Assembly (NCBI GenBank): GCA_029548865.1
Contig: JAKPMO010000013.1
Coordinates: 1-29,217 of the forward strand
DNA length: 29,217 bases
Direction of reading: 5' to 3'
Source: Caldisericota bacterium
Lineage (GTDB): Bacteria > Caldisericota > Caldisericia > JAAYUI01
Positions 22,364 through 24,275 of this stretch are shown here, piece by piece (position 1 is the first letter of the stretch; each line of letters begins with the position of its first letter). The translations under genes were made by a program, and so were the position numbers. The notes beneath the pieces were generated by a model, which saw nothing but the letters and a program-made list of their open reading frames with translations, ran no database searches and was not told the DNA's origin.

Positions 22364-22391
22364 TTGACATCCTCCCCGTTTTCAGTAGACT
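22364..22391 (+). promoter_or_regulatory. rRNA promoter P1
   Basis: TTGACA-16 nt-TAGACT with AT-rich upstream sequence. Confidence 0.75.
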
Positions 22392-22419
22392 TACAAACTC
22401 GTTGGCGATGAAGTGCCTC

Positions 22420-22448
22420 TTGACAGAGTGACCTGAATCTGCTAACCT
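22420..22448 (+). promoter_or_regulatory. rRNA promoter P2
   Basis: TTGACA-17 nt-TAACCT with extended -10 TG. Confidence 0.7.
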
Positions 22449-22503
22449 GATACGAGCAAGCGGCGAAAGGGGGAACCCCGAGGCCTTTTGCGAGCGGCAG
22501 TTT

Positions 22504-22524
22504 GAAAACTAGATAGTGATGGAA
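22504..22524 (+). other. 5' strand of the 16S processing stem (overlaps boxA-like GCAGTTTGAAAA)
   Basis: GAAAACTAGATAGTGATGGAA is complementary to 24208-24228. Confidence 0.8.
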
Positions 22525-22583
22525 CCCTTCAATTCGATAAATAATTGGTGTGTTAAAGACATCTTCGATGTCAGCACATAAGT

Positions 22584-24138
22584 TGCTCGAAGAGTTTGAT
22601 CCTGGCTCAGGATGAACGCTGGCGGTGTGCCTTATACATGCATGTCGAACGAGGCGTAGCAATACGTCTAGTGGCAAATGGGTGAGTAATAAATAGGTAA
22701 CCAACCCTTAAGACGGGGATACCCCATCGAAAGATGGAATAATACCCGATAATGTCCCTTCCGGTGCGCTGGAGGGGAAGAAAGATGGCGCAAGCTATCA
22801 CTTTTGGACGGGCTTATTTCCTATCAGCTAGTTGGTGAGGTAACGGCTTACCAAGGCTACGACGGGTAGCTGGTCTGAGAGGACGGTCAGCCACATTGGG
22901 ACTGCGACACGGCCCAGACTCCTACGGGAGGCAGCAGTCGGGAATATTCGGCCAATGCGCGAAAGCGTGACCGAGCGACACCGCGTGGGCGACGAAGATC
23001 TTAGGATTGTAAAGCCCTTTTGCCAGGGAAGAATACGCTGGAGACAATATCAATAGCGTTTGACGGTACCTGGCGAATAAGCCGCAGCAAACTACGTGCC
23101 AGCAGCTGCGGTAATACGTAGGCGGCGAGCGTTATCCGGAATTACTGGGTGTAAAGGGTCCGCAGGCGACTTGTTAAGTTAAGAGTTAAATCTCAAAGCC
23201 CAACTTTGAGGCCGCTCTTAAGACTGGCAAGATAGAGTGTAGAAGACGGAAGTGGAATTCCTGGTGGAGAGGTAAAATCCGTAGATATCAGGAGGAACAC
23301 CTGTGGTGAAGACGGCTTCCGAGTCTATAACTGACGCTCATGGACGAAAGCTAGGGGAGCAAACAGGATTAGATACCCTGGTAGTCCTAGCCCTAAACGA
23401 TGAATACTTGGTAATAGGGAGTACATACTCTTTATCGCCGAAGCTAACGCATTAAGTATTCCACCTGGGGACTACGGCCGCAAGGTTGAAACTCAAAGGA
23501 ATTGACGGGGGCCCGCACAAGCAGCGAGGCATGTGGTTTAATTCGATGCTACACGAAGAACCTTACCTGGGCTTGACATGTAGTGGAAAGCAGTATGAAA
23601 GTACTGCCCTTGTTGTAGCAATACAACAACCGCTATGCAGGTGGTGCATGGTTGTCGTCAGCTCGTGTCGTGAGATGTAAGGTTAAGTCCTTAAACGAGC
23701 GCAACCCCTGCCACTAGTTGCCACCGGTTCGGCCGGGCACTCTAGTGGGACCGCTAGTGATAAACTAGAGGAAGGTGGGGATGACGTCAAATCCTCACGC
23801 CCCTTATGTCCAGGGCTACACACATGCGACAATGGTAGGGACAGCAGGATGCGACGAGGTAACTCTGAGCCAATCCTCAAACCCTGCCCCAGTACAGATC
23901 GAGGGCTGCAACCCGCCCTCGTGAAGATGGAGTTGCTAGTAAACGCAGGTCAGCTATACTGCGTTGAATACGTTCCCGGGCCTTGTACACACCGCCCGTC
24001 ACACCACCCGAGTCGTGTGCACCCGAAGTCGGCAACCTCAACCGCAAGGAGAGGACCGCCGAAGGTGTGCTCGGTAAGGAGGGTGAAGTCGTAACAAGGC
24101 AGGTGTACGAGAACGTGCGCCTGGATCACCTCCTTTCT
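22584..24138 (+). rRNA. rrs: 16S ribosomal RNA
   Basis: AGAGTTTGATCCTGGCTCAG at 22591; ACTCCTACGGGAGGCAGCAG; ATTAGATACCCTGGTAGTCC; AAACTCAAAGGAATTGACGG; GTACACACCGCCCGTC; anti-SD GATCACCTCCTTT. Ends approximate. Confidence 0.99.
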
Positions 24139-24207
24139 AAGGAGCTGATGGCCCTTCGGGGCTATCCATAAAAGATTACAACTTCGCGACTGTAATGGTC
24201 GCGTTGA

Positions 24208-24228
24208 TTCTGTCACTATCTAGTTTTC
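24208..24228 (+). other. 3' strand of the 16S processing stem
   Basis: TTCTGTCACTATCTAGTTTTC pairs with 22504-22524 over 21 bp, including 2 G-U pairs. Confidence 0.8.
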
Positions 24229-24248
24229 TTTCTGTCGCGATAAAAATT

Positions 24249-24275
24249 CCGCCCGATAGGGCGGTTTTTTATTTT
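24249..24275 (+). terminator. Intrinsic terminator of the 16S transcript
   Basis: CCGCCC-GATA-GGGCGG followed by TTTTTTATTTT. Confidence 0.88.

Follow-up and report, generated by a model that had tools for sequence, protein, structure and literature searches.

A 16S rRNA gene lying apart from the 23S-5S rRNA genes in a family of Caldisericia

Results

The 16S rRNA locus

The window, by which we mean the whole 29,217-nt stretch of DNA analysed here, is the complete contig C12 of a 29-contig Caldisericia assembly (1.80 Mb, completeness 93.4%). Metagenomes in which half or more of its sampled words were found (14 runs) came from sludge, bioreactors, biofilm and wastewater. An Rfam search of the window returned a single match, a full-length 16S rRNA gene (RF00177, 1493 bits) with an intact anti-Shine-Dalgarno sequence CCTCCTT at 24129-24135, and ARAGORN detected no tRNA in the window. 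Both results agree with the original prediction, which had been made from the DNA sequence alone and described a full 16S gene with no tRNA, 23S or 5S gene around it. Protein genes had been predicted to follow for about 5 kb; indeed, 5,081 nt of protein ORFs lie 3' of the 16S gene up to the contig end, in the order DUF4234 gene, unnamed 430-aa gene, methyltransferase, AlbA_2/RecG-C protein and a cut ORF. The features of the locus are listed in Table 1.

Table 1 Features of the 16S rRNA unit and of the neighbouring genes in the window
Feature	Position	Strand	Basis
feoB, divergent conserved neighbour anchoring the 16S locus (context, outside the unit)	17447..19438	-	Pfam FeoB_N/FeoB_C
feoA, nearest upstream gene, divergent from the rRNA promoters (context)	21854..22141	-	Pfam FeoA, E 9.5e-17
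P1 promoter-like site (putative), TTGACA-16-TAGACT	22364..22391	+	promoter scanner, 10 of 12
P2 promoter-like site (putative), TTGACA-17-TAACCT, TG-extended	22420..22448	+	read from the sequence
Leader hairpin 5' of the boxA-like core	22456..22491	+	predicted fold
Lower processing stem, 5' arm (7 bp)	22494..22500	+	pairs with 24232-24238
boxA-like core TTGAAAACTA; overlaps the main stem at its base	22502..22511	+	recurrence in leaders of the class
Main 16S processing stem, 5' arm (21 bp)	22504..22524	+	pairing
16S rRNA gene	22584..24136	+	Rfam; single copy in the assembly
Two short trailer hairpins	24147-24166, 24185-24203	+	predicted fold, scanner
Main 16S processing stem, 3' arm	24208..24228	+	pairing
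Lower processing stem, 3' arm	24232..24238	+	pairs with 22494-22500
Intrinsic-terminator-like hairpin and T run (predicted)	24249..24275 (hairpin 24249-24264)	+	scanner
DUF4234 membrane protein, first gene downstream of 16S (context)	24411..24707	+	Pfam PF14018

The genes downstream of 16S differ among the relatives in the family. Upstream, a divergent feoB homologue was found in all eight family genomes compared, and feoA homologues are present in six other family genomes. In the window, feoA, a heavy-metal P-type ATPase gene, feoB and a FeoC-like gene share one strand (14665-22141, minus), and the ATPase gene stands between feoA and feoB solely in the window's genus. The Schlafen AlbA_2 protein with a RecG-C-terminal (HATPase_c_4) domain is encoded on the minus strand at 26944-28554, 2.8 kb downstream of 16S. 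A second, bidirectional-looking terminator hairpin is found at 24728-24753; its 4-nt loop is TTTT in the window and AAAA in the sequencing runs X2, X3 and X16, as if the loop had undergone a small inversion between strains.

Promoter-like sites, boxA-like core and terminator-like hairpin

Two promoter-like sites precede the 16S gene, for which, as for the leader element, we use the names P1, P2 and boxA. Since the scanner totals in the window were not above chance (11 promoter-like sites against 6.2 ± 3.0, and 5 terminator-like sites against 3.9 ± 2.1), support for these elements comes from their conserved position across the family. In 9/9 family genomes having that flank, both sites recur in corresponding positions, the P1-like one with a 16-nt spacer and the P2-like one with a 17-nt spacer. 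Of the tandem promoters originally predicted, both are thus backed by recurrence, and P1 only was also reported by the scanner: the -10 hexamer of P2 matches at just 3 of 6 positions and the site falls under the scanner threshold. The predicted boxA-like leader was found as well. Its core, TTGAAAACTA, occurs in 22 of the 24 16S leaders compared across the class, in 6/6 23S leaders of the family and in none of the 16 spacers of linked operons.

A terminator had been expected about 110 nt after the 16S gene, and a predicted hairpin with a T run indeed begins 113 nt past its end. Such a hairpin is present in 8/8 family genomes having the 16S 3' flank, at the spot where linked relatives run on into the 23S leader. 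In the four RNA runs, which are available as contigs and so cannot show transcript ends, one contig covers 24077-24213 at a depth of 65, and among the contig pieces listed those beyond 24265 have a depth of 2-6, a pattern to which we give no weight. The 16S trailer and terminator have a counterpart of 77% similarity over 47 nt (E 0.28) in a terminator region that follows a protein gene (C23:9132-9178), probably reflecting a shared terminator style. The 16S leaders of 8/9 family genomes (22547-22577 in the window) and of the one genome of family f2 contain a GGTGTG motif; in family f4 it stands within the first 60 nt past 16S (8/8), and in f3 and f5 it is in neither place. The motif, possibly a boxC-like element, may have switched sides of 16S.

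The processing stem and RNase III

Leader and trailer of the 16S gene are complementary. In the 21-bp stem that had been predicted, 21/21 positions are paired (19 Watson-Crick, 2 G-U), whereas the longest run in 2,000 dinucleotide shuffles of leader plus trailer was 16 bp. Beyond a 3x3 U loop the stem carries on for the 7 bp of the lower stem, which the original prediction had missed, giving 28 bp of leader-trailer pairing in total. Relatives support this stem by covariation: positions 1-16 of the main stem are paired in 8/8 family genomes, with two-sided changes at four of them, and the lower stem has two-sided changes at several positions. The comparison covers eight related genomes, three of them near-identical, and is to be read as a description rather than as an independent statistic.

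The rnc gene, whose presence the original prediction had proposed to check, is an intact frame of 240 aa scoring 199 bits against TIGR02191 (equivalog cut-off 166). RNase III (PF00636) was detected in the window's genome and in 10/10 other family genomes, that is, in 11/11; a control search with PF00636 gave no match in Thermus or Deinococcus. NusB and YbeY are present in the window's genome.

It could be argued that the stem is retained for folding or antitermination and that 16S matures without RNase III. This has a precedent in Borrelia, where RNase III was reported to be necessary for 23S but not for 16S rRNA (cited in PMC6582327). Moreover, the boxA-like core overlaps the stem, and part of the stem conservation may therefore serve antitermination. 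However, two-sided changes keep the pairing outside the core, and rnc is intact and scores over its equivalog cut-off. We consider RNase III-independent maturation of 16S unlikely here.

The split is not an assembly artefact

To examine the junction between the 16S gene and the following genes, we used four of the 14 sequencing runs in which the window's DNA is strongly represented; they came from four studies, and the run with the best representation was left out as a possible source of the assembly. In run X3, a contig of 30,190 nt starts at 23985, 152 nt inside the 16S gene, and extends past 26000 at a depth of 20.6, the contig upstream having a depth of 21.1. In run X9 a contig (23984-24254) bridges the 16S end. 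In run X2 the junction is covered by two overlapping pieces that fall short of the 31-base rule, and in run X14 no junction-bridging piece was found among the matches listed. Nor were there loose contig ends at 24138-24411 among the matches listed. Because many sites differ from the window, the bridging runs represent other strains. For 24138-24411, where mapping of long or paired reads had been suggested, the junction is thus bridged at flank depth by short-read DNA contigs from other studies.

A chimeric assembly near 24.2 kb can practically be dismissed. The source is a multi-contig assembly, and we found nothing else that would favour a chimera; contigs from other studies span the junction, leader and trailer pair across 28 bp, and the trailer and terminator recur unchanged in kind in two genomes of the genus, with five more distant genomes showing the same layout. 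It is also very improbable that the genome is mixed, with an additional linked operon collapsed in, or missing from, the assembly. Ribosomal RNA repeats commonly fail to assemble, and this assembly is incomplete and consists of 29 contigs. Nevertheless, the organism-specific 16S contig pieces in X3 have, among those listed, a depth of 14-27 against 21 for the flanks, and two relatives assembled as single contigs, G006 and G010, each have one 16S and one 23S gene. In these two genomes the halves are on opposite strands, at distances of 652 and 702 kb; both genomes belong to one genus.

These data bear out the claim of a real split rather than a misassembly. The argument originally given for it was a dedicated terminator plus an intact processing stem. 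The terminator holds as an argument, and is joined by the reads and the relatives; the stem by itself is no argument for a split, since a stem of the same kind was present in every linked relative examined.

The 23S-5S unit and the tRNA unit

A search of the whole genome for 23S and 5S genes, which the original prediction had called for, found one of each, both on contig C27 and far from its ends: 23S at C27:53845-56833 and 5S at C27:56905-57021, each a single copy in the assembly. In line with the expectation that 23S must be transcribed elsewhere, the 23S-5S unit has elements of its own: one promoter-like site (C27:53744), the same boxA-like core as in the 16S leader, a stem of 17 bp with a lower extension around 23S, and a T run that follows the stem of 5S. 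The terminal stem of 5S, lengthened by flanking pairs, is followed immediately by the T run (C27:56905-57040), which suggests that the 5S stem itself may terminate the unit. A similar T run after 5S was seen in most relatives inspected. We infer that 16S and 23S are balanced independently.

Measured against the definition of Brewer et al. (16S more than 1,500 nt from 23S; 10.1101/705046), the window has no 23S within 1,500 nt after 16S. The window's genome, G006 and G010 have one 16S and one 23S gene each, which in the same terms speaks against a mixed arrangement, the window's genome being 93.4% complete. The unlinked state is contained in a single contig in G006 and G010, and in the window's genome the junction is bridged by short-read contigs only. 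The genes of the window's genome are not co-linear, as they would be in a canonical linked 16S-23S-5S operon.

The pair tRNA-Ile(GAT)-tRNA-Ala(TGC) forms a third unit on contig C29 with its own promoter-like site. The pair (C29:10057-10410, promoter-like site 10201) is divergent from tRNA-Ala(GGC), and this trio recurs in G006. No tRNA was found in the spacers of the 6/6 linked operon loci scanned, and in two of the three linked relatives tested the tRNA-Ile/Ala pair lies outside the rRNA spacer, the third having tRNA-Ile alone there. Since the spacers of linked relatives contain no tRNA and the pair is elsewhere, the separate tRNA pair predates the split. The window's genome also encodes a tRNA-SeC(TCA) (C16:223753-223844).

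Distribution of the split among relatives

Comparison with related genomes, another proposed check, separated the family clearly from the informative genomes of other families. Among the 84 genomes of the class searched, a 16S 3' match was found in 39 and a 23S 5' match in 34. The window's family comprises 11 genomes from three genera; the nine informative ones are all split, and two (G003 and G009) are uninformative. Eight of the nine have the 16S 3' flank with the terminator-like hairpin, and the 1,512-7,775 nt examined there contain no 23S; the ninth has a 23S gene with its own promoter-like site and no 16S in the 7 kb upstream. A 23S gene was found in just 6 of the 11 family genomes. Outside the family, both ends could be evaluated in 28 of 73 genomes, these 28 being from four other families; every one of them is linked, the spacer measuring 107-175 nt. 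There was no 16S 3' match in 43 of these 73 genomes, and family f6 (two genomes) gave no rRNA match. Left out of the linked count were the second rRNA copies of G070:C9 and G046:C5, G062 (a 16S piece only) and G083, which served as outgroup; the 16S of G083 lies 99 nt from the end of its contig, is 76% identical to that of the window and was regarded as foreign.

In a 16S tree of 26 sequences rooted on one distant sequence, the family forms one clade (support 99/99), and its sister is a linked family (support 86/99) represented by just two informative genomes. The simplest reading of these sequence data is that the split is shared by the whole family and arose once, on the family stem.

Some rRNA genes look foreign to their bins, namely the 16S of G083:C93 (76% identity) and the divergent second copies in G046:C5 and G070:C9. 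In the linked relatives G024:C14, G033:C31 and G017:C5, the 23S matches are 3.7-3.8 kb long where about 3.0 kb would be usual, a hint at introns or intervening sequences.

Position of the two halves on the chromosome

The single-contig genomes G006 and G010 allowed the halves to be placed relative to the replication origin. The strand-corrected skew switches at about 1,150 kb in G006, near dnaA at 1,118 kb, and at about 850 kb in G010, where dnaA lies at 660 kb, a discordance of about 190 kb; the 42 and 39 skew windows cover about a third of each chromosome and represent one genus. With either origin placement, 16S is on the left replichore and 23S-5S on the right. Both halves are directed away from the inferred origin, and 23S-5S is closer to it: the distances of 16S and 23S-5S are about 415 and 237 kb in G006, and 475-665 and 37-227 kb in G010. 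This difference, seen in both genomes, led us to reject an inversion symmetric about the origin that would have kept gene dosage equal.

In G010, two perfect DnaA boxes (G010:C1:887240-887269) lie about 290 nt before 23S. We dropped the idea of an oriC beside 23S, because a pair like this was not seen in the other five of the six family 23S loci.

Discussion

A split rRNA operon with retained processing elements

Our results place a single 16S gene apart from a single 23S-5S pair, an arrangement common to the family, and make it likely that the halves are transcribed and processed as separate units. The tandem promoters would drive a 16S precursor of about 1.85 kb ending at the predicted terminator; leader and trailer would close a long stem around 16S, which RNase III would cut as in Helicobacter pylori. 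The 23S-5S pair would form its own precursor from one promoter-like site, with a stem of the same build. The transcription starts and ends, the RNase III cleavage and the antitermination are what we infer from these elements.

The unlinked arrangement itself is well published; what our analysis adds is the Caldisericia family as a lineage that has it. Exclusively unlinked rRNA genes were reported for 3.65% of 12,222 complete genomes and for one or more members of 37 of 71 phyla (10.1101/705046). The family resembles the genomes of that survey in having 23S and 5S together, in its low copy number, in the fixation of the trait in a clade and in a distance of hundreds of kb (survey mean 410 kb). 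The survey found fewer RNase III genes in unlinked genomes and tied the trait to the loss of RNase III; unlike this association, 11/11 genomes of our family have kept the enzyme. Ahn et al. found no significant difference in RNase III (PMC7761764). Caldisericum exile is listed there as linked with a spacer of 136 nt (Ahn et al. 2020, Table S1), and the string 'Caldis' does not occur in the main text of the Brewer et al. survey, whose figures or supplements may list the phylum. No paper on split rRNA genes in this lineage, or on the route of origin considered below, was found in our literature search, which for the survey of Brewer et al. covered the main text of the preprint.

A close known parallel is H. 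pylori, in which 16S is likewise apart from 23S-5S, the processing stems and RNase III are kept, and both stems are cleaved by the enzyme; an origin through rearrangement in a multi-operon ancestor has been proposed (Iost et al. 2019, PMC6582327). Long stems are also predicted around both 16S and 23S in the window's genome. The differences from H. pylori are the sludge and digester habitat of the lineage, the single copy of each gene and the shortness of the leader (80 nt) and the trailer (about 130 nt). Thermus and Deinococcus, too, are free-living and have separate 16S and 23S-5S units, but RNase III is reported to be absent from them (10.1101/705046), whereas it is present in the window's family. 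With the linked Caldisericia, the family shares the boxA-like core that stands at the base of each of the two stems, the lack of a spacer tRNA with tRNA-Ile/Ala elsewhere, and the tandem promoters, which precede 16S in most linked relatives. It differs from them in the 3' arms: most linked relatives have TTTTGAGGG with a G-G mismatch, whereas in the window's family both units have TTTTC together with a small internal loop.

How the operon may have been split

The split would have started from a linked, tRNA-free operon and occurred once, on the family stem. The route that we slightly favour is operon duplication with reciprocal loss. One copy would have shed 23S-5S and acquired a terminator, and the other would have shed 16S between its two boxA repeats and retained a P1-type promoter. 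Such repeats exist in linked relatives, whose spacer consists of the 16S 3' arm, a short hairpin and then a second boxA-like core opening the 23S arm. If 16S was lost between the boxA repeats, 23S would never have been without a promoter on this route. Furthermore, the promoters of 23S in the family have a 16-nt spacer (6/6), like P1 (9/9) and unlike P2 (17 nt, 9/9), and the sequence TCGT follows the -10 element in 6/6 23S promoters, 6/9 P1 and 0/9 P2 sites. A P1-like promoter together with a boxA of 16S-leader type before 23S hints at duplication followed by loss. An ancestor with several operons has already been proposed for other lineages (PMC6582327). On the other side, the core of 16S-leader type is set apart by only one base, which both leaders of the sister family lack.

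A one-step split would have been an origin-spanning inversion or a translocation with its breakpoint in the short spacer, after which 23S-5S landed behind a promoter, or evolved one, that converged on the P1 type. The halves are on opposite strands and opposite replichores in G006 and G010, the break falls precisely in the interval from the 16S 3' arm to the 23S boxA, and the 23S and 16S leaders are without alignable homology, all of which would fit a single step. When the 40 nt before the 23S boxA were aligned with 16S leaders, the scores were no better than those of shuffles (mean z -0.9 to 0.9 by family, -0.26 for the window's family), and the same was true of the alignment with linked spacers; leader homology between 23S and 16S is therefore not established. 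GCAAG precedes the core in 6/6 23S leaders and in 3/24 16S leaders. With only one operon, however, 23S-5S would be left promoterless unless it landed behind a promoter; the halves are asymmetric about the inferred origin, and the 23S promoter and boxA are of the 16S-leader type. We regard a one-step split as a serious but somewhat doubtful possibility, and the choice between duplication with reciprocal loss and a one-step rearrangement as about even. Among the immediate neighbours, which could reveal which half moved, none is common to the linked operons and either half.

If duplication with reciprocal loss is followed further, the present layout might be a readable footprint of the split, an idea that we put forward only tentatively and that is rather unlikely to hold in full. 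The duplicate would have lost its 16S when its leader boxA recombined with the boxA of the spacer, leaving a copy of P1 and a 16S-type boxA in front of 23S; the halves would have come to lie on opposite replichores, where promoter number (one for 23S-5S nearer the origin, two for 16S farther from it) would offset gene dosage. If this is true, the family and its linked sister would offer a natural experiment on the origin of split rRNA genes and on how their balance is maintained while RNase III is retained.

The Caldisericia family is thus added to the lineages with split rRNA genes, and long amplicons spanning 16S-ITS-23S would be unable to recover this sludge and digester family. That RNase III is retained in a split family counts against its loss as a general reason for splitting. 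With its linked sister families, its retained RNase III and a possible footprint of the route of origin, the family offers a clean case of a split with a single origin.
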